A DNA stretch of 59,428 bases, counting the filler. It is 5 parts of 5 records of this genome, joined end to end, with 100 filler letters (N's around TTAATTAATTAA, not from the genome) between each part and the next. Parts side by side here need not be neighbours in the genome. Positions count along the whole stretch, not along the records: positions 40,590 to 45,957 come from SRR20825019_2441; 4 more parts are not named here. The stretch is one strand, 5' to 3'. The position numbers were made by a program, and so were the translations under genes. This document shows, piece after piece, positions 3,075 to 46,057 of the stretch. Numbering within the stretch: position 1 is the stretch's first letter; each line of letters opens with the position of its first letter. The notes beneath the pieces were generated by a model. It was not told where the DNA came from and did not search any database. It saw only the letters and a program-made list of their open reading frames with translations.

Positions 3075-6000
3075 TTCGGAAAATTAGGAATACACGAACG
3101 TTTAAAGGTCTTAGCCTGACGCTCGCACTGAGTATCTTTTTTCAAATTATTGCTCCTACAATGTCTTGGGCATTAACGGGTGGACCCGCACAACCAGAAT
3201 TTAGCTCTTTCACCCCTATTGGAACTTCTGATATGGTGGATTTATCTTCTGGAGATATGAGTTACAATATTCCGTTGATGGACGTTGGAGGATACCCTAT
3301 CAACATAGCTTATCAGGCTGGAATAGGAATGGATGACGAAGCTTCTTGGGTTGGACTTGGATGGAATTTATCAGTGGGGCAAATCAATCACAACGTTCGG
3401 GGGATTTCAGATGATTTCAATGGCGATGAAATCCAATATGAAAATTACATGAAACCAAACTTAACCGTTGGAGCGAATATTAAAGTAGAATCTGCTGCGT
3501 TTGGAGTTCCAATTGACCTTGGAGTTGCAACATCGGTGGATACTGCAGGTAAGTCTACAGACGATAATGTGAACTTTGGACTATCTTTTACTTACAATAG
3601 CTACAATGGTTTTACGGTTAAACGTAGCGTAGGTGTCACTACTGATTTGAGTCAAAATGTGAGTGTTGGCTTCAATGCTGAAAGTGGGCCTGACGGTCTG
3701 ACATTAAGTCCAAATGTATCTTTGCATTCAAAGGATAAAGCATCTAAAAGACGGAATAATGATAGATCCGCCAACTTTGGTGTGTCAATGAATTCTCGTC
3801 AAGGTCTGGTTTCGACAAGTTTGAGTGTAAGAGGAAAAAAACAGGCTGATAAATTACGAGATAATGGAAAGAGATACGCTGGACACTCTCCTTCACTGGG
3901 GTCTTCCATAGGTTTTACGGATCAATTATATACCCCAGCTAATCGGGTAGGAATGATGACTCAAACCCTTACTTTTAACGGAGCATTTCTTGGAGGTGAA
4001 TTTCTAGGAATCGAAGGACAAACTCAAATAGGTGCTTATGCCACGCTTATGACCGTAGCTAAAAAAGAGCAAGATAAAAAAGCGCCTAGCTACGGATATA
4101 ATAATACACACAATGCAGGGATAGATGGAATTCTAGATTTTAACCGCGAAAAAGATGGTGCGGTAAGTCAGAACACGACTAATTTACCCATTACAAATTA
4201 CACGTATGATATCCACTCTGTGCAAGGTCAAGGAGTTTCAGGGATGTACAGAGCATTTAGAAGCCAAGTTGGATACGTTTATGATGCGCGTGTAGTAGAT
4301 GTTTCTGCGACTGGATCTCTAGGATTGGAACAAACGGGAGGAAATCTTGTACATACTGGAGTTGATTTTGAAGGAACGGGTGTGGTGAGTTATTCAGGGA
4401 AATGGCAAAAAAACAATAATATTCTCCCATGGATGAATTCTGATGCGGTAAATGAAAATCCTGATTACGAGAAAGTGAGTTACAAGAATGTTGGAGATCT
4501 AAGTTCAGATCGTGATTTTCCTAGTATGTTCTATCCAAAACAAGGCGATTATCAACCGACTCGGGTAGGTTTTACAAGCTCAAAACCTATTAATTTTAAT
4601 CGCTCGGCACAAAGCGGATTCAAGAAGAAGATCAACGGAGAAGGTAATGAAGATTATATGCCTGTTATTGGGGCTATTCATCGGGAAAATCGCCAATTAA
4701 GAAACCAGGCAATTGTTAACTTATCAATTAAGGAATTGCTTGCAGGAATCGGATATGGTCCATGTGTAAATCGCGGTGTTGCTGCTGAGTATACTCTTCC
4801 AACCCAAGCTAAAACGCATCATATTGGAGAAGTGCAAATTATAAGAAACGATGGAGCGCGGTATATTTATGGAATCCCCGCCTATAATACTACGAAGAGA
4901 GAGGCTACTTTTTCCGTAGCAGCGAATGGGAATTGTACAACGGGTATCGTAGACTATAATTCTACTCTGTTAAACAACCCCAAAGCACTGCCCAATGATC
5001 AATTTTTAGAACGAATCACAACACCGGGTTACGCTCACGCGCACCTTCTTACTTCAATTCTTTCCACTGATTACGTGGATAGAACAAATAATGGGCCTTC
5101 AACTGATGATTTTGGTTCGTACACCAAGTTCAGCTATAAAAAATACTCAGAACTAAGCGGAAATTCTGTCTACAACTGGCGAGTTCCTTATGAAGGCGCA
5201 ACATATAATGAAGGTTTAAAGAGTGACGATCAGGATGATAGAGGGAATTATGTCTATGGTGAAAAAGAGATTTTGCTCATAAACATGATCTCCACAAAAA
5301 CGCACATTGCTACTTTTCACTACTCCCCACGAAAAGATGCTCACGGAGTAAATGGAGAAGCAGGAGGGTACAGCGCGAGTATGGTTTCTTACAAATTGGA
5401 TAAAGTAAAGTTGTATTCTATTGAAGAGTTTTATGATAAAGACAATAATGGGAATCAAATTTTGGCTCTCAATCCTACTCCAATAAAAACGGTACATTTT
5501 GAGTATGATTATTCCCTTTGTACTGGTGTTCCGAATAATGAAGTAGTGGGAGCGAGCGTTGCTGTTTCACCAGAAAATCAAGGTGGAAAATTAACTCTTA
5601 AACGACTCTATTTTACTTATAGAAACTCTAAAATGGGTCAATACACTGATTATAAGTTTGAGTATAATGGTCTCAACCCTCAATACAATATTAAGGGATA
5701 TGATTATTGGGGGAATTACAAACCAAACTCAAATGGTTGTTCAAATACTGATCTAGTTAACGCAAGTGAATATCCATTCACAGAGCAAGACAAAACAACG
5801 CAAGATGCATATTCCTCGGCTTGGAGTTTGACGGATATTCATTTACCTTCAGGAGGTAAGATTTCAGTCACTTATGAATCAGATGATTACGGTCATGTTC
5901 AGGATAAGAAAACCATGCGCATGTTTAAAGTGGTTGGTGCTGGTGATGACAGGAACCCAGATGGAGACATTGACCCACAGCTTAATTCGGAAGAGCTTTT

Positions 6001-10632: not shown

Positions 10633-13600
10633 ATGAAAAAAATCATTGGACTTTTATTTATTCTAGTAAGCGTTTTTAGCTATTCGGCAGAAGTAGAATG
10701 GAGCAAGCGACTTGAAGGTGCTGATATCATTGGAGGATCGTTAAACATTGTCGATGGAGATTATGGAGCGTCAAATTTTATTGATGTTACTACTTTTTCA
10801 TATATCCGTCTGGGGCTCAATGAGCGAGTTATGGGAGACTACCTTGCAATTGCAGGAACCAACACTATTTCGGTAGATCTTTCTATAATGGCTTATGATA
10901 ATCTTGGAAATCCAATAACACCAGCTGTCTCAACGACTATTGAAATGGAATATTCCTATCAGGCAAATGCTTACTTAATGGATGCTTCCGATTTTAGAAT
11001 GCCAGGTGTGCATCGATTTAATTTAACTGTGACAAATGTAAAACTCAACGGAAATCCAGTCTCGACAATTGGAAATTACACGTATCTGCAAGCCGGAGTT
11101 TACGCTGAGCGTTATTACCAATTAGATTTACTTACTACTCCACAGGTAAGCCCACAGATGGTTTCGTATCAAACTGGATCGGCAGTGGCTGTTGGGACAA
11201 CAATTACTACTTCTACAACTGATGAAATTTATTTGAATTGGGAGTACATTGATGGTGCTGAGGAATATGAACTGGAATGGACTTGGGTTGATAATTATTC
11301 AGATCCAGTAAACGGACCTTTTATTACACCTCCATTTTTAGTCCTCACAGAAGCGGAATTTAAAACAAACAGCGCAAGGATTAGAACAGGTGATCAATTT
11401 TACCGTATTCCGCAAATTTTCGCCAAAGGTTACCTTGTGTATAGAGTAAGAGCGGTTGGAAGATGGTTAGATGCACCCAACAAAGATTTGTTCGGAGCAT
11501 GGAGTTCAGGAGTTGGAGCTAACTCTGTTGTAGACTGGACTTATGTTCAGATTTCACATCACCATGAAGCAAAGAAAAATTGGCAATATCAGTCGACATT
11601 CGCGGAAGATGGAAAGAAAAAAGAAGTTACCCAGTATTTTGACGGAAGTCTTAGAGGAAGACAAACAGTAACAAGAATTAATAGCGATAATCAATCTGTT
11701 GTAGGTGAGACCATCTATGATAATGAAGGAAGAGGCGTTGTTCAAATATTACCTGTTCCGCAAGATAATCCAGCGATTAAATTCTATCCTTCAATTAATG
11801 AATCAGGAGTTATTCCGAACACTCCGTATAGTCATTTTGATTTTGACTGGGAGGAAAATGTGGCAACCTGTGAACCTGCTCCAGCCAACACATTATCTGA
11901 TTCTAAAGGAGCTGCAAAGTATTATTCTCCAGCGGGGTATAATGCTAGTTCTGATCAAGAGTGGCAACAGTATGTCCCTTCTTCTAATGGTTATGCCTTC
12001 ACACAGGTTGAATACACCCCTGATAATACAGGGAGAATTCGAAACCAAAGTGGGGTTGGTCCAGATCATGCTATTGCTTCGGGGCATGAAACATACTATT
12101 ATTATACGCAGCCTTATCAGCAAGAATTAGATCGTCTCTTCGGATATAAAGTAGGTTACAAATCTCGTTATAAGAAGAACATGGTCGTTGATGCAAACGG
12201 TCAGGTCAGTGTTTCTTATTTAGATGCTCAGGGCAGAGTAATAGCGACTGCGTTGGCTGGTGATAACGTGACATCTTTTGATGATCTATCCTCAGAAAGT
12301 GATAATTCATTTCACAAAACAATAAAGACGGATATACTTAATAATGGGAATCCATACATTTCCGCGCCAAGTCCTACCACCCCGTGGTCTTCTGACGATC
12401 AATTGGATGACAATGATCTTAGATCAACAGGAAGATTTGGAAACTTGAGCGATGAACTTGCTTTTGAAACCCAAATTGCAGTTCCTCAAACGACCGACTT
12501 CGAATTCAGTTACGATATTAGAACAAGTAACTATTCGGAAGAATGCGATCTTGAAGGGGCTCTTACTCAGGGAGTGAATTTCCCTTATGTATACAGTCTT
12601 GACATCAACCTTTTGGATGATTGTGCAAGTGATAAATTGGATGGACTCACAACTATTTTTGATCAGTTGACAGTTGATAATTTATCGACCAATTTCCCTT
12701 TGAATTCTATGGTGAATCCAAATCCAGGAACGCAACTCGGTCAAGGATCTTATACGTTGAGTAAATCCCTTCGAGTAAACCAAACGGCTCTTGAGGCATA
12801 TAAAGTACAATATTTAAGCGCCTCAAATGCATGTATTCTAACTTGGAATGACTTTAATCCTGGCCCGTTCTCAACAGATGGATGTATCACCAGTTGCAAG
12901 GAATGTGCAGAGTCTTTAGGAGCGGATGCCTCGGAATACATCGTTTTTGTAGCTCAAGATCTAAATGTCGACCCTACCACTTTTACAACAGGTGAAGTTT
13001 CAGCTTACACTGCTGAATACCTCGCGAAAGTTGCCGAATGTTATGAGCCATGCAAAGCAACTTCAACGTGCGATGTATATGATCAACTTATTCGAATGGA
13101 TGTTACTCCGAACGGACAGTATGGTAACCCTACAAGTGGAACACCAACACAAGTTTCCATTTTTAGTTCAGGCTACTGGAGAAACCTGGATTTTGTAAAC
13201 AACGTAAATGTATACATGGATGAAAACGGGGATACTGCCAAAGTTGAAGCTTATGTTACAACGTATCCTCATCCTACGGATCTAGGTAATTTCCAGTATC
13301 AAATCACTCCAAACGGTCAGCCAGTTCAAATGGTAAAGCCATGGCAATTAGTTCCTGCGGATTTTATTTTAATGTTTGAACCCAGTTGGACAGAAGCATT
13401 GATGCCTTTTCATCCTGAATATCCACTATACGAATATGCTTCAGAAATTTGTGCAGTGGAGCATACCTATGCGGGTAATCCTAACAACACCAAGTTAACT
13501 AGTGAAGCCTTCGATAATGTATTGAGAGAACAAATCATGGATTTGAGCTTGGCGATAACGAACAACTATGCCATTGATTTTACTGCGGGAACTCCTTTGT

Positions 13601-16600
13601 TCAGCCAAGATCCCTATTTTCTTTTATCTTATTCGATTCACCCATCCTACGGAACATCAGGTGACCTTAATCAGATAAAATCGGCGCTTATGATTGAAGC
13701 GCTTACGGTCAACTTCAAGGGGCAAGGGATGACCATGATGCAGTATGCTATTAAAACAGTCAAATACGGAAATGATCTTACGGTAACAGTTCCGTCTGAA
13801 ACATGGGCAAACGTTTTAACTGGAGCACCCTATTTCACACCGGCTCAACAAAATGCCATTTGGGCAACTTACAAAAGCTACTACCTTTCATACAAAGCTG
13901 AGATAAATCAGCTATTAATGGATTTCTATGGTTTTGGACTCAACTATAATGGTGGAGGATCATCTCAGGCAGCTGGTATTTTTAACGGATGCATTGGCGA
14001 TGGTAATTTCTTGTCTGCAGGAATCTTACCTTCATTTAGTTTTAGCACGGCCAATTTTGGAGATCTTTTCAATCTGTGGATCGAATTATGGAATATAGGA
14101 GCAACTAATCCGACTACTTTTCCCGTTACATTTTGTAATTCTAATTTTAATACTAAAGAGCTCAGATTTTACAGAGTTGATGCTCTTTCAAATCCTGCAT
14201 CCTCGGTTGTGTCAAGCGCAACACAGCTTTCCCAAGACGCTGATTTTGTTCAGTTTCAGCAAACAGGATTGTGTCCTCTTACGGTAGATATGGAACGTCT
14301 GGTAGGCGACCTCCTTGTGAACCATCAAGCAGATTTATTGGCTACCGGTCCCTTTTCTCAGTCAACTGTAATGACATTTGTTCCCGATTTGTATGAAGCA
14401 TTCACTGGGGTTTCTCTTTTCAATAGTCTTCCTTCTCCTCCTAATTCGGCGACACTAGACAATGTGGAAATGGATGGTGTTTTCACTGCGACAACCCTTA
14501 CTATTAATCTTAACCTGGACAATGCGTTTAATACGTCGGTAGGGCAATTACTAATTTCGCAACCTATTAGATACCCTTTCAATCAATCACCAAGCACACT
14601 TTCATGGTTAAATTATGGTAGCGTATGGACCATCACAAATGTACATGGAAGTTACCTAACAGGAAGTGGCAATGAAGTGCAACTGCTTGTTTCGGTAGAC
14701 AACCCGAGTACTCCTACTGTTGAAAATGTTGAATACATCATCTCTTATACGCTCTCAGGCACAGCAACTGTCAATTTTAATAATTGTGCTTCGTTGCAAC
14801 AACCAGCAAACGATCCAGATTGCCAACAGGAAGAAGAGTTCGAGGGAGCTATGCTTAACCTATTGCAAGAGTTGATTGCTCAAGGTCAAATCGGAAATAG
14901 CTCGGTAGACTTAACTTTATCTCCATATAATGTTTCGTATGGACAATCTATCCTAGCATCCAAACTTGGCTTGAATGCAACATGGAATGGAAGTAGTGGA
15001 ACAATTTCCACGGCAAACTCAACATTTTACATTGGAACATCCTTTTCAAGCAATGTAGTATTTGTTACCGGATTTGATATGAATCCAACTAATTCCTCAG
15101 TTCAAATAAATTGGATGACTGGAACAACGGGAAATTACCAAAATACCTTAGCTACGTATACTTATTCTTATACAAATACTATTATTGGTGCGCCACCATT
15201 GAGATTCGAATGCCCTTGTGACGAAACAATTGTCGCAAAGGATCTTCCTGACTTCGTAGAAGACATCGTTCATCAACAAACAAATGGTGCTACTCATACT
15301 TATTTAACGAACATTGCCGCATATTTAGGAATTCAGAATCCATTGATTTACAATTGGAATCAAACCAGTAATGAAATTTTCTTTGAAATCTACGATGCAT
15401 CGGCGTGTACTACTAATGAAAATGGTACTGAGTGTGAAGGACCATCTTGTATCGTTCGATTGTTTATAGATCAGGCAAATGTTGGAGCAACGAATACTGC
15501 AGGACTAGCAACGTATTCAGGTAATAATCAATTTGCGTTCGATTTTAATAGTATTTCCGCATCGGTCCTTATTGAGTGCCTGGATATAGAACCATGTGAA
15601 GAATGCGTAGTTGCGCCACTCGAGCCAGTTAGCTGTCAAGATGCTTATGAAAGCTACAAAGATCGAATGGAAACCTTGTACGGAGCACCGTTTTCGACAC
15701 AATTGGAACAGGATATTTTTGAGAGTGAGCATTTAATTAACGAGCAAACGTTTTGTGGATCTTCTTATGCATATATTACGGATGCTTATTTAAATTACTT
15801 AACTGATTTATCGATCAGCTCTCCATTAGCAGCCAATTATTTGACTATTAATGAATTCGGAACAACTCCACTCGGATACTCGAACGCTCTGTTAAATCCT
15901 GCAGTAGATGCTTACGTTCTTTCTCCTGTGAGTAATCCTGCCTTTACTGGATACTTACCTTGGTCTCAGTTTGTTGTGGATATATACTTGATTAATAATC
16001 CGACGATTTGTCCTGCACATTCTCCTGCTCCATATATTTCAGTTCCTATTGAAGAAAACCCATGTGATCAGTGGGAAAACAATATTATTGGAATAAATGC
16101 GATCAATCAATACAACATTTATCTCCAACAAATGGGAGATGCCTTTGAGCAGGCATATATTGAGGGCGCTATGGCTTCGGTTAAAGAAAGTTTTTATGAA
16201 AAACATTTAGATAAAGAGTATCATTATACGTTGTACACTTATGATAGAGCAGGTAACTTAATTGCAACTGTTCCACCGAAAGGAGTGAATCGCCTAGAGT
16301 ATGATTCGAATGGGAGTCCTATTTCTAATGTTAGTGGACAAACTTCTGCCGAACAAACTGATATCCTCAGTTACCGGGAGAATAGCCTTCCGGGAGCTAC
16401 TGATCTTGGACCTATTTCCGCTCGATTGGCACCTGAACATTCATTTGAAACCGAATACAGATATAATTCACTCAATCAACTAGTTTATCAGCATACACCT
16501 GATGGTGGTGAAAGCAGATTCGCCTATGACGCACTTGGAAGACTCGTAATGAGTCAGAACGCCAAGCAGAAAGGTGCCAACCAATACAGCTATACAAAGT

Positions 16601-19600
16601 ATGATGTTCTAGGGAGAGTTTCTGAAGTTGGTGAGTTGACTTATGTAGGTACATCTGGGATCAACGAGAATGGACGTTTTTATGCCGGGGCAATTGAATT
16701 TCAAGGCGTTAACAGCTTGTCGTTTCCTGATAACCTCTCCATGAATCGAGAAGAAGTGACACGTACAATTTATGATGAGCTCAACGGAGTCTCAACAATG
16801 TATATGACAGGAACACCAGCAACAGCAACATCTATTCAAATTCGGGATCTCTTTGGAGTAAACTATTCTTATGACAACACGAGAAATAGAATTGTGGGTG
16901 TGATCTATCAAGAGACCTTGAATCAATCTTTAAGCGTATATGAAAGTGCTTCGTTCTATGACTATGATGTACATGGAAATGTGAAACATCTAATCCAAGT
17001 CCACAATGCTCCAGAATTAATTGCACTAAATCACCATATAAAACATGTGGAGTACACGTACGATTTGGTGAGTGGAAATGTCAATAAAGTGATTTATCAA
17101 AAAGAGCAACAAGATCAGTTCATGCATCGCTATTTATACGATTCAGATAACAGAATAACGATTGCTGAAACGTCTAAAGACGGTGTGGTTTGGGAAAAAG
17201 ATGCCAAGTATTTCTATTATGCTCATGGACCTTTGGCACGAACTGAAATCGGTCAGAAAAAAGTTCAGGCAAACGATTATGCGTATACAATACAGGGTTG
17301 GCTTAAAACCGTAAATGGAGAAAAAGTGAACGAAACTACCATGATGGGGCAGGATGGGCTTCAAGCTTCTGTGAATGGCCAGATTGCTAGAGACGCGCAC
17401 GGTTTTAGTTTGAGTTATTTTGACAACGATTACGCTTCTGCAAATACTGCAATGCTCAATTATACGGCATCACTTTCTAACCAAGCAACGAGTTTGTACA
17501 ATGGGAATATCCGTAGAATGGAAACAGCACTTTCAGATGTGGATGAGAAGGCCTTGTTAACTCATCAAACAAGTTACGGTTACGATCAGCTGAACCGAAT
17601 TAAGTCCATGGAAGGATATTATCCAGAAATTGGGTCGGTTTCCAATTATGCATCCTCCTATAGTTTTGATGAAAACGGAAACCTAAAAACGCTAAAGCGC
17701 TATGCAGACATCGCTGGAACAAGTGTGCTGATGGATGACTTTGACTACAAATATGAAGAAACCATCAATACAGGACAGAATAATCAATTAAGTTGGGTCA
17801 ATGATCAAGCAGGTGTTTCGCAATTTGCTAATGCAGACATAGATATGAGCATGGTGGCAGGAAATTATGAATACGATGCCATTGGACAATTGACAGGGGA
17901 TGCTGATGAAAAAATCACCAACATTAAATGGAAAGTGACCAATAAAGTAGAAGAAGTTGAAAAAGTGGATGGTAACATAACCACGCTGATTCATTTTGAC
18001 TACGATCCTATGGGGAACAGAATTGCCAAACACATTAAAACGATCACAAACAATCCAGTGAACCAAACGGCAACAATGGAAACCATATCCACTTTTTACG
18101 TACTTGATGCTCAAGGAAATTGCATGAGCATCTATGAAACTAATTCAGAAAGTGGTACATTAGCTTTAACCGAGCGAAATATGTACGGATCATCACGAGT
18201 TGGCATAGAACAAGTAAATGAGTTAATGGCATTCAACGAAATTGAATTGTCAGGCTTGGTTAATTTGTCCAATGTCACGATTGTAGCGGAAGTATGTACC
18301 CAAGTTGGGTGGAATTTTAGTGATGGAGCGGTCACCTCAGCTCATCAATCTACCGACTTTGATTCGGACGGAGACCAAGATTTGGTGATTTCATCGAATA
18401 ACCCTGCGAGTTATTATGCGGCTCACTTTACTTTTAATACCATTCCTGGTCAAACCTACATCGTTAATTACTCGTTGTTGGATCAAACGGGTACATCCTC
18501 TCACGAACTCGTTTATTCATGTGACAATACAGGTGTCTTAAGTAGTAATTTGAGGTATTTGGCAGGCAGTTATACTTTTAGTTTTGTGGCGACCAATTCT
18601 ACTTCTCGTCTCAAATGGTATAATGGAAAAGAAAGCCCGAGTGCACAAATAGTAATCTCTGATCTGATTATTCAAGGTCCTGGTGATTTATTTGGTACAG
18701 GAAGTAGCAGTGCAGTTCAAGAACCATACATTGCCTCTAATATTGTTGGAGACAAGCGCTACGAGCTTTCAAATCACCTTGGAAACGTTCTAGAGGTAAT
18801 TACTGATCGTAAATTACCTGAGCCCATTGGAACTTCAGGAAATGAAACTGTAAATTACTATACTGCAGATGTTGTTGCATTTAACGATTACTACCCCTAC
18901 GGGATGTTGTTACCTTACAGTTGTAGAGAGGTGATAGTTCAGCCGACAGAACAGGTAATTGTTCCAACCTACCAAAACATGACGTATAGCGGTCAAACAC
19001 TATCGGAAGTAAATTCTGATGGAGACTTACAAAATATTTCAGGCACTGATGGTGCGGGAAGTTCATTAGAAACTGTTGAGGAAGGAGAATTTATTCGTTG
19101 GGAAGGCAGTGCAGTCATCTCTGAAAACAGAAGTTTTGTAGGATTATCATACACAGATGTTAGTGTATCTTATCTGACCATCGACTATTGTTGGTATGTA
19201 TATCCCAATGGATATGCATATATTCTTGAAAATGGAACATCCGTCCCGGGAATCGCTATTCCTTACTCTGGAGGCGACGTTTTTGAAGTAATCAGAGATA
19301 ATGGAGATATAGTCTATAAAATGAATGGTGTTACTTACCAAACAAGTACTGATCAAAATGTTAATGCCTCCATGGTGGTGGACATCACCATCTCAGATAT
19401 TTCAGGTGTAGATGTCATAATTAAAAATCTACGCATACATAAGTTAGTGCAAGCTGAAACTATAACCGTCTGCTACGGAAACGGAAGCGTGGGGGATTAC
19501 AGGTATGGATTCCAAGGACAAGAGAAAGATAATGAAATAAAGAACATTGAAGGAAGTTCTGTAAACTACAAATACAGAATGCATGACCCTAGAGTGGGAA

Positions 19601-20361
19601 GGTTCTTTGCGGTTGATCCATTGGCAGCGAAGTATCCGCATAACAGTCCGTATGCGTTTAGTGAAAATAGATTGTTGGACGCCATAGAACTCGAAGGATT
19701 GGAAGCATTCTTTATACATGGAACATCTGATGGTCCATCAATGTGGACCAGAGACAAGGAAGTTAAGTCCAATATGAAAGCACTTTTGGGGCTTACAAAT
19801 TCTAAAACGATGGATTCCAATTTTTCATGGGAAGACAAAACTGAATGGTATCAAATTGCTAAGTCAGGGACAGCTTATCCGTTGAATACTAGCGATGATA
19901 GAAAAATAGCTGCAAAAAATCTAATGAATTATGTAATTAAAAATCGAAAAGAAGGAGAAGAAATAACTTTAATTGGGATGAGTCACGGCGGAAATGTCGC
20001 AATACAGGCTGCGGAAATGTTGTATGAAAAACATGGTATAAAAGTTAATATCATAACAGTAAATACTCCCTCATATCATTCAGGTTGTGAAGACCCTGAA
20101 GGTAAAAATGGAATTAATGATATGATAAGTTTTTGGGATGAAAAAGATAACGTTGCTGGTGGATGGTCAGTACTTACTGATATGTTTAGAATTAGCCACG
20201 ACAATTATGATGAGGATGCGCAAACGAAAACAACTAATGTTGAAATAAAATCTAATCAACCTACAGGCGAAAAAGCTCATAATTCAATCTATTATGATGC
20301 CGATATTATCGAAGAAACGATTAAAAGTGAAAATGTTGAAAAATTAGAACCAGTAAATTGA
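10633..20361 (+). CDS. Giant RHS repeat-associated core protein (FN3-like and DUF6443-like N-terminal region, Cys-rich middle, C-terminal alpha/beta-hydrolase toxin domain)
   Basis: TQYFDGSLRGRQT; YD repeats; YELSNHLGNV, DYYPYGM, YRYGFQGQEKD, GRFFAVDPLA..YP..SPY.F..N.....ELEGL; C-terminal FIHGT and GMSHGG. Confidence 0.85.
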   Translation: MKKIIGLLFILVSVFSYSAEVEWSKRLEGADIIGGSLNIVDGDYGASNFIDVTTFSYIRLGLNERVMGDYLAIAGTNTISVDLSIMAYDNLGNPITPAVSTTIEMEYSYQANAYLMDASDFRMPGVHRFNLTVTNVKLNGNPVSTIGNYTYLQAGVYAERYYQLDLLTTPQVSPQMVSYQTGSAVAVGTTITTSTTDEIYLNWEYIDGAEEYELEWTWVDNYSDPVNGPFITPPFLVLTEAEFKTNSARIRTGDQFYRIPQIFAKGYLVYRVRAVGRWLDAPNKDLFGAWSSGVGANSVVDWTYVQISHHHEAKKNWQYQSTFAEDGKKKEVTQYFDGSLRGRQTVTRINSDNQSVVGETIYDNEGRGVVQILPVPQDNPAIKFYPSINESGVIPNTPYSHFDFDWEENVATCEPAPANTLSDSKGAAKYYSPAGYNASSDQEWQQYVPSSNGYAFTQVEYTPDNTGRIRNQSGVGPDHAIASGHETYYYYTQPYQQELDRLFGYKVGYKSRYKKNMVVDANGQVSVSYLDAQGRVIATALAGDNVTSFDDLSSESDNSFHKTIKTDILNNGNPYISAPSPTTPWSSDDQLDDNDLRSTGRFGNLSDELAFETQIAVPQTTDFEFSYDIRTSNYSEECDLEGALTQGVNFPYVYSLDINLLDDCASDKLDGLTTIFDQLTVDNLSTNFPLNSMVNPNPGTQLGQGSYTLSKSLRVNQTALEAYKVQYLSASNACILTWNDFNPGPFSTDGCITSCKECAESLGADASEYIVFVAQDLNVDPTTFTTGEVSAYTAEYLAKVAECYEPCKATSTCDVYDQLIRMDVTPNGQYGNPTSGTPTQVSIFSSGYWRNLDFVNNVNVYMDENGDTAKVEAYVTTYPHPTDLGNFQYQITPNGQPVQMVKPWQLVPADFILMFEPSWTEALMPFHPEYPLYEYASEICAVEHTYAGNPNNTKLTSEAFDNVLREQIMDLSLAITNNYAIDFTAGTPLFSQDPYFLLSYSIHPSYGTSGDLNQIKSALMIEALTVNFKGQGMTMMQYAIKTVKYGNDLTVTVPSETWANVLTGAPYFTPAQQNAIWATYKSYYLSYKAEINQLLMDFYGFGLNYNGGGSSQAAGIFNGCIGDGNFLSAGILPSFSFSTANFGDLFNLWIELWNIGATNPTTFPVTFCNSNFNTKELRFYRVDALSNPASSVVSSATQLSQDADFVQFQQTGLCPLTVDMERLVGDLLVNHQADLLATGPFSQSTVMTFVPDLYEAFTGVSLFNSLPSPPNSATLDNVEMDGVFTATTLTINLNLDNAFNTSVGQLLISQPIRYPFNQSPSTLSWLNYGSVWTITNVHGSYLTGSGNEVQLLVSVDNPSTPTVENVEYIISYTLSGTATVNFNNCASLQQPANDPDCQQEEEFEGAMLNLLQELIAQGQIGNSSVDLTLSPYNVSYGQSILASKLGLNATWNGSSGTISTANSTFYIGTSFSSNVVFVTGFDMNPTNSSVQINWMTGTTGNYQNTLATYTYSYTNTIIGAPPLRFECPCDETIVAKDLPDFVEDIVHQQTNGATHTYLTNIAAYLGIQNPLIYNWNQTSNEIFFEIYDASACTTNENGTECEGPSCIVRLFIDQANVGATNTAGLATYSGNNQFAFDFNSISASVLIECLDIEPCEECVVAPLEPVSCQDAYESYKDRMETLYGAPFSTQLEQDIFESEHLINEQTFCGSSYAYITDAYLNYLTDLSISSPLAANYLTINEFGTTPLGYSNALLNPAVDAYVLSPVSNPAFTGYLPWSQFVVDIYLINNPTICPAHSPAPYISVPIEENPCDQWENNIIGINAINQYNIYLQQMGDAFEQAYIEGAMASVKESFYEKHLDKEYHYTLYTYDRAGNLIATVPPKGVNRLEYDSNGSPISNVSGQTSAEQTDILSYRENSLPGATDLGPISARLAPEHSFETEYRYNSLNQLVYQHTPDGGESRFAYDALGRLVMSQNAKQKGANQYSYTKYDVLGRVSEVGELTYVGTSGINENGRFYAGAIEFQGVNSLSFPDNLSMNREEVTRTIYDELNGVSTMYMTGTPATATSIQIRDLFGVNYSYDNTRNRIVGVIYQETLNQSLSVYESASFYDYDVHGNVKHLIQVHNAPELIALNHHIKHVEYTYDLVSGNVNKVIYQKEQQDQFMHRYLYDSDNRITIAETSKDGVVWEKDAKYFYYAHGPLARTEIGQKKVQANDYAYTIQGWLKTVNGEKVNETTMMGQDGLQASVNGQIARDAHGFSLSYFDNDYASANTAMLNYTASLSNQATSLYNGNIRRMETALSDVDEKALLTHQTSYGYDQLNRIKSMEGYYPEIGSVSNYASSYSFDENGNLKTLKRYADIAGTSVLMDDFDYKYEETINTGQNNQLSWVNDQAGVSQFANADIDMSMVAGNYEYDAIGQLTGDADEKITNIKWKVTNKVEEVEKVDGNITTLIHFDYDPMGNRIAKHIKTITNNPVNQTATMETISTFYVLDAQGNCMSIYETNSESGTLALTERNMYGSSRVGIEQVNELMAFNEIELSGLVNLSNVTIVAEVCTQVGWNFSDGAVTSAHQSTDFDSDGDQDLVISSNNPASYYAAHFTFNTIPGQTYIVNYSLLDQTGTSSHELVYSCDNTGVLSSNLRYLAGSYTFSFVATNSTSRLKWYNGKESPSAQIVISDLIIQGPGDLFGTGSSSAVQEPYIASNIVGDKRYELSNHLGNVLEVITDRKLPEPIGTSGNETVNYYTADVVAFNDYYPYGMLLPYSCREVIVQPTEQVIVPTYQNMTYSGQTLSEVNSDGDLQNISGTDGAGSSLETVEEGEFIRWEGSAVISENRSFVGLSYTDVSVSYLTIDYCWYVYPNGYAYILENGTSVPGIAIPYSGGDVFEVIRDNGDIVYKMNGVTYQTSTDQNVNASMVVDITISDISGVDVIIKNLRIHKLVQAETITVCYGNGSVGDYRYGFQGQEKDNEIKNIEGSSVNYKYRMHDPRVGRFFAVDPLAAKYPHNSPYAFSENRLLDAIELEGLEAFFIHGTSDGPSMWTRDKEVKSNMKALLGLTNSKTMDSNFSWEDKTEWYQIAKSGTAYPLNTSDDRKIAAKNLMNYVIKNRKEGEEITLIGMSHGGNVAIQAAEMLYEKHGIKVNIITVNTPSYHSGCEDPEGKNGINDMISFWDEKDNVAGGWSVLTDMFRISHDNYDEDAQTKTTNVEIKSNQPTGEKAHNSIYYDADIIEETIKSENVEKLEPVN

Positions 20362-20788: not shown

Positions 20789-20888
20789 NNNNNNNNNNNN
20801 NNNNNNNNNNNNNNNNNNNNNNNNNNNNNNNNTTAATTAATTAANNNNNNNNNNNNNNNNNNNNNNNNNNNNNNNNNNNNNNNNNNNN
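20789..20888. other. Artificial contig spacer
   Basis: 44 N + TTAATTAATTAA + 44 N; abrupt GC change across it. Confidence 0.98.
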
Positions 20889-25940: not shown

Positions 25941-26040
25941 NNNNNNNNNNNNNNNNNNNNNNNNNNNNNNNNNNNNNNNNNNNNTTAATTAATTAANNNN
26001 NNNNNNNNNNNNNNNNNNNNNNNNNNNNNNNNNNNNNNNN
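25941..26040. other. Artificial contig spacer
   Basis: 44 N + TTAATTAATTAA + 44 N. Confidence 0.98.
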
Positions 26041-40489: not shown

Positions 40490-40589
40490 NNNNNNNNNNN
40501 NNNNNNNNNNNNNNNNNNNNNNNNNNNNNNNNNTTAATTAATTAANNNNNNNNNNNNNNNNNNNNNNNNNNNNNNNNNNNNNNNNNNNN
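40490..40589. other. Artificial contig spacer
   Basis: 44 N + TTAATTAATTAA + 44 N. Confidence 0.98.
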
Positions 40590-41861
40590 CTGAAACTGGC
40601 GATGGAGGACTGGGCGGCGCCCATCATCGTCACTACCAATGTGCAATTGTTCGAAAGCCTGTTTGCGTCGCGGACATCGCGGGCGCGCAAGCTGCACAAT
40701 ATCGCCGGAAGCATCATCATTCTGGATGAGGCGCAGACCTTGCCGCGGCACTATCTCTTTCCGGTCATGCGGATGCTGGAGGCGCTGGCCGAACAGTATG
40801 GCTGCACCATCATCCTGTGCACGGCGACACAGCCGGCGCTTGGCGTGCGTCCGGATTTCCCGCAAGGGCTGGCGCTTGCAGGCCGCGAATTGGCGCCCGA
40901 TCCGCATGGGCTGGCGGGCAGGCTGGCGCGCGCGACCATCCGCCATGGCGGGACGATGGACAATGACGCGCTGGTTGCGGCGCTGGACGAAAACGAACAG
41001 ACGCTGGTGATTGTCAACAGTCGCCGCCATGCGCTCGAACTCTTCAGGGACGCCGAGGCGGCGCGGCTTTCCGGCCTCGTTCATCTTTCGACGCGGCTCT
41101 GCGCGGCGCACCGGCGTGAGATCCTTGGCCGTGTGAAGGCGCGGCTGAAGGCGGGCGGCACATGCCGGGTGATCGCAACCTCTCTGGTGGAGGCGGGTGT
41201 CGATATCGATTTCCCGCTTGTCTTGCGCGCCGAGGCCGGGCTGGACCAGATCGTGCAGGCGGCCGGGCGCTGCAACCGCGAGGGTGGGCGTAGGCGTGAA
41301 GAGAGCGTCGTCACGGTCTTCGATCCACCGGATTACGCACCGCCAACCGAGATCAAGGGCATGATCGGCGATATGAAACGGATGATCGACAGGCATGACG
41401 ATCTTCTGTCGCTGCCGGCGATTGAGGACTATTTCCGCGAGGTCTACTGGCGAAAGGGCGAAAAAGGGCTTGACGGCAAGGGCATTCTCGACCGGTTCAA
41501 GGTCACCCTTTCGGGCACGGATTTCGCCTATCGGTCGGTGGCGGAGGATTTCCGCATGATCGAGAGCGGCATGGAACCGGTGGTCATCCCTTATGACGAC
41601 AAGGCGCGTCAGGCTGTCGCGGATCTCGGCGTCGAGAACATTTCCTCTGGTCGACTCGCCAGAGTGTTGCAATCTTACATTGTTCAGGTGCCGCCGAAGG
41701 CGCGGGCGCTGCTTGTGACCAATGGTCATGCGCGTTTCGAGCGGCCGGACCTGCGTGGAGATCAGTTCGTGGTGCTGAAAACCGCATCGCTCTACGGGCC
41801 TGAACTGGGGCTGTTGTGGGAGGATGGGGGCTATCTGGCGGCGGAGAACATGATCTGTTGA
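40590..41861 (+). CDS. cas3: Type I-C Cas3 helicase, 5' truncated
   Basis: EDW.APIIVTTNVQLFESLF, LDEAQ, CTATQP, ATSLVEAGVDIDF and QAAGRCNREG. Confidence 0.95.
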   Translation: MKLAMEDWAAPIIVTTNVQLFESLFASRTSRARKLHNIAGSIIILDEAQTLPRHYLFPVMRMLEALAEQYGCTIILCTATQPALGVRPDFPQGLALAGRELAPDPHGLAGRLARATIRHGGTMDNDALVAALDENEQTLVIVNSRRHALELFRDAEAARLSGLVHLSTRLCAAHRREILGRVKARLKAGGTCRVIATSLVEAGVDIDFPLVLRAEAGLDQIVQAAGRCNREGGRRREESVVTVFDPPDYAPPTEIKGMIGDMKRMIDRHDDLLSLPAIEDYFREVYWRKGEKGLDGKGILDRFKVTLSGTDFAYRSVAEDFRMIESGMEPVVIPYDDKARQAVADLGVENISSGRLARVLQSYIVQVPPKARALLVTNGHARFERPDLRGDQFVVLKTASLYGPELGLLWEDGGYLAAENMIC

Positions 41862-41886
41862 CATAAAAATACTAGGAAGATATTGA
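41858..41886 (+). promoter_or_regulatory. Sigma70-type promoter overlapping the cas3 stop; also the protospacer-like target of the mini-array
   Basis: TTGACA (41858-41863)-N17-TATTGA (41881-41886); minus strand reads TTC + CTAGTATTTTTATGTCA. Confidence 0.75.
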
Positions 41887-41935
41887 AGGCGAAGTTATTG
41901 CCCCCATCTTTAGTGCACGAGCACAGGAGGTGGTA

Positions 41936-42031
41936 ATGCGACCGTTGAAACCCGAAGATTTCTCTTGGCAAGATTGGTTGCCAATTCTGTTGGCGTTTGT
42001 GGTCAAGTTTTTGATCGCGCTCTTGGGGTAA
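41936..42031 (+). CDS. Unannotated 31-aa hydrophobic peptide MRPLKPEDFSWQDWLPILLAFVVKFLIALLG, candidate CRISPR-repressed toxin
   Basis: SD AGGAGGT at 41925-41931, ATG 41936, TAA 42029-42031; single TM-like C-terminal helix. Confidence 0.7.
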   Translation: MRPLKPEDFSWQDWLPILLAFVVKFLIALLG

Positions 42032-42036
42032 TCAAT

Positions 42037-42119
42037 GTCGTCCAGTGCCTGCTGGATGTGGATCGAAACCTAGTGTTTTTTTGTCATGAGTATGTCCCTT
42101 CCTTCTTGGGAGGGGCATA
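42037..42119 (+). CRISPR. Single-spacer degenerate mini-CRISPR (crRNA-like regulatory RNA, CreA/CreR-like)
   Basis: R1 42037-42069 GTCGTCCAGTGCCTGCTGGATGTGGATCGAAAC (I-C-type ends, 7-bp stem); 24-nt spacer 42070-42093; degenerate hairpin R2 GTCCCTTCC-TTCTT-GGGAGGGGC from 42094. Confidence 0.85.
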
Positions 42120-42149
42120 GTCATTTCGATGTTGGAAGGGGAGGGGCGA

Positions 42150-42848
42150 TTGGCTTATGGAATTAGACTGAAGGTCTGGGGCGACTATGCGTGTTTTACG
42201 CGGCCCGAGATGAAGGTCGAGCGCGTTTCCTATGACGTGATGACGCCATCGGCGGCGCGCGGCATCCTGGAGGCGATCCACTGGAAGCCGGCGATCCGCT
42301 GGGTCATCGACGCCGTTCACGTGCTGGAGCCGATCCGGTTTCAGTCGATCCGCCGCAACGAGGTTGGCCACAAGGCGCCGGCCGGCAAGATCAAATCGGC
42401 GATGAAGCGCGGTGATCTGGAGGGGCTCAACCTCCTGGTCGACGAGGATCGCCAGCAGCGCGCGGCAACCGTGCTGGTAAGACCCGCCTATGTCATCGAC
42501 GCCCATTTCGAAATGACGGAAAAGGCAGGGCCGGACGACAATGAGGGCAAGCATCTCGACACGTTCAGCCGCCGTGCCCGCAAGGGGCAATGCTTCAACC
42601 AGCCCTGCCTGGGGACGCGCGAGTTCTCCGCCGCGTTTGAACTGATCGAACCGGATGATCTGATACCGCAAGCCGCCGCCGAACATCGTACCGCCAGCCT
42701 CGGTTTCGGCGCGGCGCGCGATCTGGGCTTCATGCTCTATGATATCGATCACGGTGCGGAAGGCCGCCCTTCGCTGTTCTTTCGGGCCTTGCTGAAAGAC
42801 GGCGTGGTCAAGGTGCCGCCGGCGAATTCTCCGGAGGTCAGGCGATGA
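42150..42848 (+). CDS. cas5: Type I-C Cas5 (Cas5d)
   Basis: WGDYACFTRPEMKVERVSYDVMTPSAARGILEAIHWKP; TTG start after GGAGGGG SD. Confidence 0.95.
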   Translation: MAYGIRLKVWGDYACFTRPEMKVERVSYDVMTPSAARGILEAIHWKPAIRWVIDAVHVLEPIRFQSIRRNEVGHKAPAGKIKSAMKRGDLEGLNLLVDEDRQQRAATVLVRPAYVIDAHFEMTEKAGPDDNEGKHLDTFSRRARKGQCFNQPCLGTREFSAAFELIEPDDLIPQAAAEHRTASLGFGAARDLGFMLYDIDHGAEGRPSLFFRALLKDGVVKVPPANSPEVRR

Positions 42849-44713
42849 CCATTCTCGCTTCGCTTGTGAATGCCTACGACCGGCTGTCGGACGCGCCGCC
42901 GATCGGCTTTTCATCGGAAAAGATCGGTTTCGTCATCGCGTTGAATGAAGATGGCAGCGTTGCCAGTGTCAGCGATCTCAGGGAAGGCGAGGGCAAAAGG
43001 ATGCGCGCCCGGCAGATGCTGGTGCCGCAACCGGTGAAGCGGACAGCGGGCGTCGCGCCCAATTTCCTCTGGGACAAGACATCTTATGTTCTGGGCGTGA
43101 CCGCCGGCGAGGGCAAGCGCACGGCCGATGAGCACGCGGCTTTTGTCGAACGGCATCTGACCGACCTTGGCGGCACTGATGATGCCGGGCTCAGAGCATT
43201 GCTGTCCTTTCTGCAATCCTGGACGCCCGAACGTTTTGGCGAGCAGGGCTGGCCGGAGGACGTGAAGGACCAGAACGTCATTTTTGCGCTGGAGAGCGAT
43301 CGGCTCGCCCATATCTATCTCCATGACCGGCCGGCGGCAAAGGCGCTGTGGGCTCGCCTCTCGACAGCGGGCGATGCCGGTGACCAGATTTGCCTGGTAA
43401 CGGGCGATAAAATGCCGCCTGCCCGGCTTCATCCCTCAATCAAGGGAGTGTGGGGCGCGCAATCTTCCGGCGCGGCACTCGTCTCCTTCAATCTCGACGC
43501 CTTCACCTCCTACGGCCATGAACAGGGCGCCAATGCCCCCGTTTCAGAAATCGCCGCCTTCAAATACACCACGGTCCTCAACCGCTTTCTCGAACGCGAC
43601 AGCGGCCACCGGGTGCAGATCGGCGATACCTCCACGGTGTTCTGGGCTGATGCGCGTGACATGAAACGGGCGGAGGAGGCGGAAGGATGGGCGGCCTATA
43701 TGCTTGATGCGTCACCGACCTCCGACGATGACAAGGCCGGCAACCGGCAAATCGAAATCAAACTCAAGCGTCTGGCCAAAGGTGAACATCTAAGCGTGAT
43801 CGAACCAGAGCTTGCCAAGGACGTTCGCTTTTATGTGCTTGCCCTGTCTCCCAACGCAGCACGCCTATCCGTGCGGTTTTACTTCAAGGATAGTTTTGGT
43901 GTGGTCGCCGATAACTACGCTGACTATCTGCGCGATATCGCTTTGGAGCCCTGGCCGGAGGGTCGAATTCGGCCTTCTATTTCCCGCGCTGTTCTGCGAA
44001 CAGCACCGGCGAGAATTGACAGGACCGGAAAGGTCACTTTTGACCGGGAGCAGATTTCCGCTTTGCTTTCTGGGGAGTTGCTCAGAGCCATTTTGACGGG
44101 AGGGCGGTTTCCGGCTGCTCTTCTTGGTCTGCTGCTGATGCGCGTTCGTAGCGATCACGTTCTAGACAGTGTGCGAATTGCTCTGATCAAAGCTGTCATC
44201 ATTCGTATGATGCGGCTTGAAAAACGTCTGCCGCCCGGTTTCGACGGCGATCCCAACAAGGAGTATCTGATGCGTTCCGACCCGGACGATCCCAATCCCG
44301 CCCGCCGTGCCGGGCGCCTGTTTGCCGTGATCGAACGAGCGCAGCTTACCGCGCTCGGCGATGACATCAATGCTACCGTCAAGGACAAGTTTCTGAGTTC
44401 GGCTGCCGCCACGCCCGGTCAGGTCTTTCCTGGCATCCTGAAGAATGCGCAAAATCATATCAAGCGCCTTCGCAACGGTCATTCCGATGCGAAATGGATA
44501 AAGGACAGTCGTCACGCCAAGAAAATGGCGGCGATACTCGACAGGGATATCGGCAAGCTTGTCGCGAGTTTCAATGACAGTTTTCCCGAGCAACATTCGA
44601 ACGAAGAGCAAGGGCTTTTTTTCATCGGCTATTATCAGGAGCGCTTCGGCAAGGGTTCCAGCGATGAACCGACGGACGAGATCGCCGCTTTCGAAACCGA
44701 TACGCAGGAGTGA
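42845..44713 (+). CDS. cas8c: Type I-C Cas8c/Csd1
   Basis: PNFLWDKTSYVLG, CLVTG...ARLHPSIKGV, LVSFN..AF.SYG..QG.NAPVS and LSPNAARLSVRF. Confidence 0.95.
   Translation: MTILASLVNAYDRLSDAPPIGFSSEKIGFVIALNEDGSVASVSDLREGEGKRMRARQMLVPQPVKRTAGVAPNFLWDKTSYVLGVTAGEGKRTADEHAAFVERHLTDLGGTDDAGLRALLSFLQSWTPERFGEQGWPEDVKDQNVIFALESDRLAHIYLHDRPAAKALWARLSTAGDAGDQICLVTGDKMPPARLHPSIKGVWGAQSSGAALVSFNLDAFTSYGHEQGANAPVSEIAAFKYTTVLNRFLERDSGHRVQIGDTSTVFWADARDMKRAEEAEGWAAYMLDASPTSDDDKAGNRQIEIKLKRLAKGEHLSVIEPELAKDVRFYVLALSPNAARLSVRFYFKDSFGVVADNYADYLRDIALEPWPEGRIRPSISRAVLRTAPARIDRTGKVTFDREQISALLSGELLRAILTGGRFPAALLGLLLMRVRSDHVLDSVRIALIKAVIIRMMRLEKRLPPGFDGDPNKEYLMRSDPDDPNPARRAGRLFAVIERAQLTALGDDINATVKDKFLSSAAATPGQVFPGILKNAQNHIKRLRNGHSDAKWIKDSRHAKKMAAILDRDIGKLVASFNDSFPEQHSNEEQGLFFIGYYQERFGKGSSDEPTDEIAAFETDTQE
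44270..44713 (+). CDS. cas11: Cas11c small subunit, internal in-frame start within cas8c
   Basis: AAGGAG at 44258-44263 followed by in-frame ATG 44270; GRLFAVIE.AQ and F.IGYYQ motifs. Confidence 0.7.
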   Translation: MRSDPDDPNPARRAGRLFAVIERAQLTALGDDINATVKDKFLSSAAATPGQVFPGILKNAQNHIKRLRNGHSDAKWIKDSRHAKKMAAILDRDIGKLVASFNDSFPEQHSNEEQGLFFIGYYQERFGKGSSDEPTDEIAAFETDTQE

Positions 44714-44718
44714 GAAAA

Positions 44719-45594
44719 ATGGACCCTATCCAAGGCCGATATGACTTCGTCTACCTTTTCGATATCGTCAACGGCAACCCGAACGGCGACCCGGATAACG
44801 GCAACATGCCCCGTGTCGAGATCAACAGCCAGAAAGGGCTTGTGACGGATGTTTGCCTGAAGCGCAAGATCCGAAACTATGTGGATCTGGTCAAGCAGCG
44901 GGAACCGCCTTACGCCATTTACATGCAGGAAAAGGCGGTCCTGAATAATCAAAACCGGCTTGCCTATGAGGCGCTTGATATAAAACCGGAAACAAAAAAA
45001 CTACCGAAAGACGAACAGCAGGCTCGCGATATCACGGCTTGGATGTGCCGCAATTTTTACGACGTCCGTACCTTTGGTGCGGTGATGACCACAGAAGTGA
45101 ATTCCGGGCAGGTTCGCGGCCCCGTTCAACTGGGGTTTTCGCAGTCGATTGATCCTATTTTGCCACAGGAAATCACGATTACCCGTTCTTCCGTTACCAA
45201 TGAGCGTGACGCCGAAAAAGAACGGACCATGGGGCGGAAATATATCATTCCCTACGGTCTCTATCGCTGCCACGGTTTCATCTCCGCCAGTCTTGCAGGT
45301 GACAGCAAAAAGGGAACCGGTTTTGGTCAGGATGATCTCGATCTGCTCTTTGATGCGCTGATAAACATGTTCGAGAATGACCGTTCGGCCGCTCGAATGG
45401 AAATGAATGCACAGTCGCTCATAGTCTTTAAGCACAGCAATGCACTGGGTAATGCTCCGGCACAGAAGCTTTTTAAGCGGGTGAAGGTCGAAAAGAGACC
45501 CGAGGTGAAGGTTGCTAGTTCTTTCTCCGACTACATCGTCGAGATCGACCGCGACAATCTGCCGGACGGTGTCGAGATCATCGAGAAGCTCTGA
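44719..45594 (+). CDS. cas7: Type I-C Cas7/Csd2
   Basis: NGNPNGDPDNGNMPR, TDVCLKRKIRNYV and DVRTFGAVM. Confidence 0.95.
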   Translation: MDPIQGRYDFVYLFDIVNGNPNGDPDNGNMPRVEINSQKGLVTDVCLKRKIRNYVDLVKQREPPYAIYMQEKAVLNNQNRLAYEALDIKPETKKLPKDEQQARDITAWMCRNFYDVRTFGAVMTTEVNSGQVRGPVQLGFSQSIDPILPQEITITRSSVTNERDAEKERTMGRKYIIPYGLYRCHGFISASLAGDSKKGTGFGQDDLDLLFDALINMFENDRSAARMEMNAQSLIVFKHSNALGNAPAQKLFKRVKVEKRPEVKVASSFSDYIVEIDRDNLPDGVEIIEKL

Positions 45595-45597
45595 GCC

Positions 45598-45957
45598 ATG
45601 GCGGGGGCGGTGGGAGCGGGAGCGGACATGGGAGCAGGCGAGCCCATGCCCATTTCAGCGCTTCAGCATGCGGTCTACTGCCTGAGGCAGGCCGCCCTCA
45701 TCCATCTGGAGCGGGTCTGGGTGGATAACCGGTTTACGGCGGAGGGCGATGTGCTGCACGCGGTGGCAGACAAGGGCGGCAAGCGCAAGGCGAGGGGGCT
45801 TCGCCGGGTGATGGCGTTGCCGGTGGCCAGCCGGCGGCTCAATATTTCGGGCATTGCCGATATGGTGGAGTTTCAACTCTCCCCCGATGGCCGCGAAACC
45901 GCCTTTCCGGTGGAATACAAACGCGGTAAGGCCAAGCTTCACCGCGCCGACGAGGTG
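45598..45957 (+). CDS. cas4: Cas4, 3' truncated
   Basis: ISALQH..YC.RQAALIHLE.VW.DN and ADMVEF...PVEYKRGK. Confidence 0.92.
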
Positions 45958-46057
45958 NNNNNNNNNNNNNNNNNNNNNNNNNNNNNNNNNNNNNNNNNNN
46001 NTTAATTAATTAANNNNNNNNNNNNNNNNNNNNNNNNNNNNNNNNNNNNNNNNNNNN
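45958..46057. other. Artificial contig spacer
   Basis: 44 N + TTAATTAATTAA + 44 N. Confidence 0.98.

Follow-up and report, generated by a model that had tools for sequence, protein, structure and literature searches.

Between cas3 and cas5c of a type I-C CRISPR locus in the window, by which we mean the whole analysed stretch of 59,428 bases, lies a cassette of about 280 nucleotides (nt) composed of a candidate promoter, an open reading frame (ORF) for a hydrophobic peptide of 31 residues, a degenerate I-C repeat, a guide with a 17-nt seed and a 3′ hairpin. This cassette is likely to be a unit in which Cascade, the effector complex of the locus, is guided to the cassette's own promoter and represses the peptide gene.

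The degenerate repeat (psi-R) occupies 33 nt of the plus strand (42037–42069) and consists of an 8-bp stem (42039–42046 paired with 42051–42058, loop 42047–42050) and an 11-nt 5′ handle (42059–42069). Its final 12 bases are identical to the consensus drawn from genuine I-C array repeats, which were recovered from 57 of 81 related sequences; its stem departs in sequence from the array repeats yet still pairs over 8 bp and ends immediately 5′ of the handle, at 42058. The guide, or spacer, follows on the same strand (42070–42093), its target-matching seed being 42070–42086. The target site is on the minus strand (41858–41878), where a TTC protospacer-adjacent motif (PAM; 41878–41876) adjoins protospacer positions 1–18 (41875–41858). 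Positions 1–5, 7–11 and 13–17 of the guide pair with 41875–41859, and positions 6, 12 and 18 are mismatched. With 15 matched positions that are not multiples of six, this is the top non-self match of the guide across the 59,428 bases, the runner-up seed matching at 10. When the guide was shuffled and compared with the 12 TTC-flanked sites of a 379-nt region, none of 100,000 shuffles reached 15 and the maximum was 13. The match between guide and target is not due to chance. The original prediction made on this DNA had described a 33-nt I-C-like repeat between cas3 and cas5 and a TTC-flanked minus-strand match of 15 in 17, mismatched at positions 6 and 12, that covers five of the six bases of a TTGACA box; the coordinates of the repeat hold, its handle and stem have their counterparts in the array repeats of relatives, and the match, its PAM and its overlap with the box were all reproduced.

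The target overlies a candidate promoter that was read from the sequence on the plus strand (41858–41886), with a −35 box TTGACA at 41858–41863, a 17-nt promoter spacer that includes the PAM, and a −10-like hexamer at 41881–41886. The overlap takes in five bases of TTGACA (41859–41863) as well as the stop codon of cas3 (41859–41861). Further downstream, between target and repeat and on the plus strand, is a small ORF of 31 codons plus stop (41936–42031), which went unmentioned in the original prediction and is preceded by a strong Shine-Dalgarno sequence (41925–41930, plus strand) 5 nt upstream of the ATG. Judged by reading the translation, the encoded peptide has a polar N-terminal third, and its last 17–18 residues are nearly all hydrophobic. 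This ORF, a putative toxin-like peptide gene, is probably the regulated cargo of the cassette.

Beyond the guide, the plus strand contains a 12-bp hairpin (42091–42119, loop 42103–42107) with a fold z-score of −4.39, and none of 200 shuffles folds as well. A 49-nt RNA that began at 42059 would have its 3′ end within the loop of this hairpin. The element had originally been described as a degenerate hairpin repeat, and this part of the description is not supported: the hairpin is strong, but its likeness to the repeat stays at shuffle level (alignment score 2 versus a shuffle mean of 2.2), and it is therefore named a hairpin here. An Rfam scan of 41000–43000 with E-values up to 10 returned nothing relevant.

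Scans with the Cas5c of the window gave 80 genome loci and 80 metagenome loci, nearly all alphaproteobacterial, and the end of cas3 and cas5 could both be placed in 149 sequences, i.e., 148 loci and the window. The gap between the two genes is bimodal, being shorter than 150 nt in 101 of the 149 and 150 nt or longer in 48, of which 47 fall between 250 and 450 nt. A handle-like motif, defined as one within two mismatches of the handle, was found in 31 of the 48 long gaps, and 24 of these 31 modules keep a psi-R stem of at least 5 bp that ends 0–1 nt ahead of the handle, with stem sequences that differ. Each module was scored by comparing the 18 bases after the handle with the best TTC-flanked site of its own region, over the 15 positions left when every sixth one is set aside. 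By this measure 25 of the 31 modules score at least 11/15 against their own site (15 in four modules, 14 in ten, 13 in four, 12 in five and 11 in two; then 8 in two, 7 in one, 6 in one and 5 in two), and cross-locus pairings of guides with regions reach 11 in 16 of 930 cases. Guides vary widely among loci yet fit their own sites; guide and site have therefore changed together. Covariation of spacer and promoter across related I-C loci had been set beforehand as a test, and its outcome was positive, both in these 25 of 31 modules and in a search blind to the PAM, in which TTC adjoins 25 of the 28 best matches. Together with the published I-C architecture discussed below, with which the analogy is drawn, this supports the original proposal of a guide of the CreTA/CreR kind directed at a local promoter.

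Cascade guides flip out every sixth base, an established property that is also cited in the preprint on CRISIS defence systems to which we return below. In the 25 modules, matching is found in 96–100% of cases at positions 1–5, in 16% at position 6, in 88–100% at positions 7–11 and in 24% at position 12, after which it drops from 88% to 60% over positions 13–17 and amounts to 16–40% at positions 18–24. Because positions 6 and 12 were outside the selection score, the chance-level match at these positions is an unbiased sign of the flip of every sixth base. Guide and target thus coevolve with a 6-nt periodicity, and the 25 independent pairs form a natural series in which sequence by itself reveals the periodicity of Cascade and a seed that works over about 17 nt. 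In three independent modules, L070, L073 (the same module as L112) and L113 (the same as L122), the target apparently has no base opposite guide position 6, the remaining seed matching by eye at 15, 14 and 13 of 15 positions, respectively; such a gap, if real, would mean that the I-C Cascade tolerates a one-base target deletion at the flipped-out position.

The 25 modules occur in both orientations, 11 being co-directional with cas5, the window among them, and 14 being inverted. Regardless of this orientation, the strand that carries protospacer and PAM runs opposite to the cas3-to-cas5 direction in 24 of the 25, so that the strand to which the guide pairs is the coding one for transcription in the cas direction. 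In the same-direction relatives of the window module (class A), the target lies over or abuts a −35-like box, 42–68 nt upstream of the ATG of the ORF by eye, the corresponding distance in the window being 57 nt. When 401 genomes of the taxonomic class were sampled evenly and separately, Cas5c was present in 19, and six of these 19 (five without the genome chosen as centre) have a unit with a TTC-flanked match of 12–14/15. In four same-direction modules (L002, 3328–3434; L049, 5708–5839; L073, 5896–5997; L129, 505–599), repeat unit and guide lie inside a long-range inverted repeat whose arms measure 11–33 nt and are separated by 41–104 nt, and the window and L131 have a local hairpin 3′ of the guide in its place.

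These observations are accommodated in a model in which the transcript of the cassette would be cleaved by Cas5c 3′ of the repeat stem to give a CRISPR RNA (crRNA)-like RNA of about 49 nt, starting at 42059 with the 11-nt handle. This RNA would be taken up by Cascade (Cas5c-Cas8c-Cas7c), which would bind, and stay on, the TTC-flanked site over the −35 box of the cassette itself. As pairing ends past position 17, Cas3 would not be licensed for cutting, and the outcome would be repression of peptide-gene transcription. The Cascade genes would probably be damped too, both the cassette promoter and read-through from cas3 being blocked, because there is no evident terminator before cas5c and the R-loop would sit in the path of cas3 read-through. 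Terminator prediction gave none between 42119 and 42150, and two terminator-like matches inside the small ORF are within chance. Should Cascade be lost or blocked by an anti-CRISPR protein, the peptide would be made, and it is taken here as a candidate membrane-acting toxin or abortive-infection effector. For RNA processing, Cascade binding and cleavage-free repression, we infer these steps from the published I-C, I-B and I-F systems.

The view that the cassette carries a peptide gene is consistent with what is found in the same place in relatives. In class A, seven relatives have an ORF of 26–33 residues with, by reading of the translations, a polar, proline-rich head followed by a hydrophobic stretch that contains one basic residue. 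Among three class A members of the same length, the proportion of synonymous differences (pS) is 0.83 versus a proportion of nonsynonymous differences (pN) of 0.40, a pattern that points to a peptide. A class A profile gave one match per genome, as expected by construction, in the four member genomes searched, and none in the closest cassette-less genome or in 400 further genomes of the taxonomic class, a null result that says little because just 18 of those 400 have Cas5c. A second kind of cassette, class B, is inverted (L014, L019, L020, L034, L047, L050, L057, L060, L070, L079, L082, L093 and L103) and encodes a peptide of 26–32 residues that matches no known family, its head being rich in arginine and its tail alternating between hydrophobic and acidic. 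Here, the ORF comes first and is followed by the repeat unit, and the TTC-flanked site that the guide fits lies between the ORF and cas5. In six class B members pS is 0.77 and pN 0.23, so this ORF is clearly kept as a peptide. The distant loci L149, L154 and L155 have ORFs of 50–62 residues with a hydrophobic segment. From its size, make-up, conservation and position, the window peptide may be toxic.

Several points weigh against a peptide gene under guided repression. The locus is known as DNA sequence only, a look through sequencing runs having given no RNA run with the stretch and the four runs that contain it being DNA contigs, and the RNA and repression steps are carried over by analogy. 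Six of the 31 handle-bearing modules, which amount to five distinct ones (L112 = L073), score below 11/15 under the strict rule; one of them, L127, has a TTT PAM and then matches at 15/15, and the other five are accounted for by eye only, as a 1-nt target gap at guide position 6. The class A peptides are just 17–42% identical to that of the window, the closest being from L127, and their pN/pS estimate comes from three sequences. The window peptide belongs to no Pfam family (E-values up to 10) and no PADLOC family, and a protein atlas gave one weak lead, with a score of 0.75. The −10 hexamer is weak, and a consensus promoter scan of 41500–42400 gave 0 sites. The contig ends within cas3 and cas4, so that an intact cas3, cas1/2 and an array, if present, would lie outside it. 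Finally, units exist that have no cargo, L166 and L168, and a purely cas-regulating role is therefore possible.

Such a role is the most serious of the rival explanations, although an unlikely one: guide and Cascade would throttle the promoter of cas5c-cas8c-cas7c, in the manner of CreR, and the ORF would be a harmless leader or unexpressed. In L166 and L168, where the gap is about 200 nt, a TTC-flanked target stands directly before a good −35/−10 pair and is followed by a repeat unit, a G+C-rich hairpin and cas5, with no ORF, and these two look like true I-C elements of the CreR, or Cas-regulating, type. The empty terminator prediction ahead of cas5c and the fact that in 24 of 25 modules the protospacer keeps to one strand with respect to the cas direction fit control of transcription in that direction, and creA-like elements near I-C cas promoters appear in the accessible text of the CreR preprint (10.1101/2023.03.10.532045). 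On the other hand, the ORF of the window has a strong ribosome-binding site and is maintained as a peptide in relatives, and loci without the cassette place cas5 10–100 nt after cas3, evidently without need of such a promoter. The slot is moreover shared by three unrelated kinds of small ORF, namely class A, class B and the larger membrane-like one, which is the pattern of a cargo slot. Autoregulation and repression of the peptide gene are compatible and not mutually exclusive.

It is very improbable that the cassette is a decaying relic, a formerly functional unit that is now a fossil. Relatives that look decayed do occur, namely L005 (11/15, with a short broken ORF), L113 and L122 (early stop in the ORF) and L002 (frame shift), and the context of the window is incomplete; however, the parts present in the window are intact, from the 15/15 match, TTC PAM, 8-bp stem and perfect handle to the open ORF with its ribosome-binding site and the full-length cas5c, cas8c and cas7c. 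Barely credible is a non-CRISPR inverted repeat, whether a long-range RNA stem in cas3 read-through, a protein-binding site or the termini of a small mobile element: its 17-nt arms are indeed reverse-complementary, about 195 nt apart and flank a cassette gained or lost as a unit, and window position 6 could be a G-U pair in RNA, but it predicts neither chance-level matching at handle-counted positions 6 and 12 beside neighbours at 88–100%, nor a TTC adjoining position 1 in 25 of the 28 matches found without regard to the PAM, nor a conserved I-C handle and stem just before one arm, and the 14 inverted class B modules carry guide and site as direct repeats of a single strand, which makes pairing within one transcript impossible.

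Cascade-guided repression of the peptide gene remains the preferred explanation, and the history of the gap between cas3 and cas5c bears on how such cassettes may spread. Compared with the two nearest Cas5c relatives (gaps of 27 and 37 nt), the homologous sequence breaks off in the last codons of cas3 and sets in again at the ribosome-binding site of cas5, and the window has about 280 nt extra. On a quick Cas5c tree of 148 rows, class A covers 16 rows with 14 changes, at least nine of which are forced by well-supported branches, and class B covers 15 rows with 13 changes, at least six of them forced. Different modules are also found with near-identical Cas5c, as in L047 and L101. This patchy spread suggests that the guards, as we call these modules, move between CRISPR loci. 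In runs X1 and X4, metagenomes that hold the contig of the window, 310 bases within 41826–42137 are exchanged for 350 others in a second, diverged I-C locus, which may be read as a further sign of a swap site. An additional occupant of the gap is a conserved ORF of about 100–111 residues, which fills it in about ten loci (L012, L030, L037, L046, L048, L055, L100, L101, L102 and L123; broken in L046) and has no handle-like motif and no Pfam or PADLOC family. We tentatively propose, with somewhat less than even confidence, that the cas3-cas5c gap of alphaproteobacterial I-C loci serves as a site where tiny mobile guard cassettes are swapped, and that in these cassettes Cascade and a crRNA-like RNA restrain peptide toxins of at least two unrelated families. 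If this is true, these would be the first peptide toxins of type I toxin size under transcriptional control by Cascade, and such cassettes would make Cascade addictive, punish anti-CRISPR attack and tune Cascade levels through the control of read-through.

The window itself consists of five contigs placed end to end, which differ in G+C content and are separated by four linkers (20789–20888, 25941–26040, 40490–40589 and 45958–46057), each built of 44 N, a 12-base all-frame stop motif and 44 N. The type I-C piece is a single contig of 5,368 bp (40590–45957). It begins in the 3′ part of cas3, encoding the C-terminal half of the helicase (40602–41861, plus strand; NCBIfam cas3_core, Pfam Cas3-like_C_2), and continues on the same strand, after the cassette, with cas5c (42150–42848; TIGR01876, 2e-52, full profile; TTG start at 42150 by alignment to L001 and L007), cas8c (42845–44713; TIGR01863, 1.2e-141), cas7c (44710–45594; TIGR02589, 2.8e-111) and the 5′ part of cas4 (45598–45957; TIGR00372). 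The profile matches of Cas5c, Cas8c and Cas7c are full length, and the cognate Cascade genes are thus intact. The genes cas3 and cas4 are cut because the contig ends there, at 40590 and 45957, which does not imply truncation in the cell. A reading of the locus as degraded, given the cut cas3, the cut cas4 and the missing cas1/2 and array, was considered and dropped: the contigs are joined by N-linkers, so decay of the I-C system cannot be deduced from the window, and a public metagenome contig that matches the I-C stretch with 0 differences extends 1,115 bases further upstream, into cas3. No CRISPR array was found in the window, which is uninformative because the contig ends inside cas4. The genes for a GNAT acetyltransferase, epmA and epmB are on contigs other than the I-C piece, and their neighbourhood with it need not hold in the cell. 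Two very long ORFs are present on the first contig of the window (3071–8800, 1,909 residues; 10633–20361, 3,242 residues).

The closest known counterparts are the solitary repeat units (SRUs) of type I-C systems. According to the accessible text of the preprint that describes them (10.1101/2024.12.27.630466), the defence systems that are inserted between cas3 and cas5c, namely Nezha, Gabija and eight 'CRISIS' systems, are repressed by crRNA-like RNAs (crlRNAs) from these units; it was shown experimentally that the repeat unit stands before cas5c and the target after cas3, with an 11-nt handle and a 3′ hairpin. The PAMs are TTC or TTA, mismatches occur at positions 6 and 12, the crlRNAs are 49–50 nt long and end in the loop of the 3′ hairpin, and the hosts are mainly Neisseria. 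The window resembles these loci in subtype, in the slot, in a repeat unit with stem and 11-nt handle, in a TTC-flanked promoter target, in the mismatching of guide positions 6 and 12 and of the PAM-distal end, and in a 3′ hairpin with its loop about 49 nt from where the handle starts. The features that mark SRUs and CreA-like units are thus found in the window, i.e., handle and stem before cas5c, a PAM-flanked partial match, a 3′ hairpin and intact Cascade genes. Unlike the SRUs as far as described there, in which multi-gene or enzyme defence systems are inserted, the cargo in the window is a single hydrophobic-peptide ORF of 31 codons, the hosts are alphaproteobacterial, and the module is known from sequence alone. 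In a census preprint, mini-arrays were present in 7% of 1,206 I-C loci.

CreTA systems, reported from type I-B in haloarchaea and type I-F in Acinetobacter and Pseudomonas (accessible parts of PMC8501985, PMC10097628 and 10.64898/2026.06.02.729485), share with the window a guide from a degenerate repeat with limited complementarity to a toxin promoter, and their cleavage-free repression by Cascade and release of the toxin on loss of Cascade are what is proposed here. CreT toxins, as described in these sources, are small RNAs whose action depends on a few rare codons or on RNA targeting, whereas the window has subtype I-C and an ORF of 31 codons, and the ORFs of its relatives are conserved as peptides. 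A protein cargo is known from CrePA, in which, by the available part of the report (10.1101/2024.01.05.574328), CreA represses CreP, a KilA-C protein of 103 residues encoded between cas3 and csy1 of the Acinetobacter baylyi I-F system. CrePA is alike in having protein cargo, repression by guide and effector, a position next to cas3 and proposed firing when an anti-CRISPR blocks the effector; unlike CreP, the window peptide has 31 residues, is membrane-like, belongs to I-C and contains no KilA-C or other Pfam domain at E-values up to 10. CreR, in turn, is described for I-B, I-E and V-A in the preprint cited above, whose accessible text also mentions creA-like elements found by hand in I-C (Figure S7). 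Here too a degenerate mini-CRISPR guide is directed at a promoter, which in the window very probably also feeds the effector genes, with autorepression as the result; CreR is, however, defined in that text without a partner toxin gene, whereas an ORF preceded by a ribosome-binding site separates target and repeat in the window.

With regard to the cargo, the nearest comparison is with the type I toxin-antitoxin class and its small hydrophobic membrane toxins, such as Hok, TisB and Fst. As this class is presented in the accessible part of PMC12737573, its peptides are, like that of the window by reading of its translation, about 30 residues long with one hydrophobic segment of helix length; they differ in being controlled by an antisense RNA on the mRNA, as against putative transcriptional control by Cascade, and the window peptide matches no family. 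Full-text literature searches gave no small-peptide cargo in I-C systems, with the limit that elements of this kind from alphaproteobacterial I-C loci may already be listed in supplements, for instance in the CreR preprint's Figure S7 or the CRISIS preprint's Supplementary Data 1. The regulatory principle, by which a degenerate repeat turns Cascade into a promoter-specific repressor, is already in print for I-C and for the same slot, and the mechanism itself will not surprise specialists. The small-peptide cargo, by comparison, looks new: the window and its relatives would add two families of very small peptides as regulated cargo which, if toxic, would be the smallest protein cargos known for CRISPR-guarding modules, simple to test and reusable as Cascade-dependent kill switches. 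Of use, and readily testable, are the covariation series and the two tiny candidate toxins.

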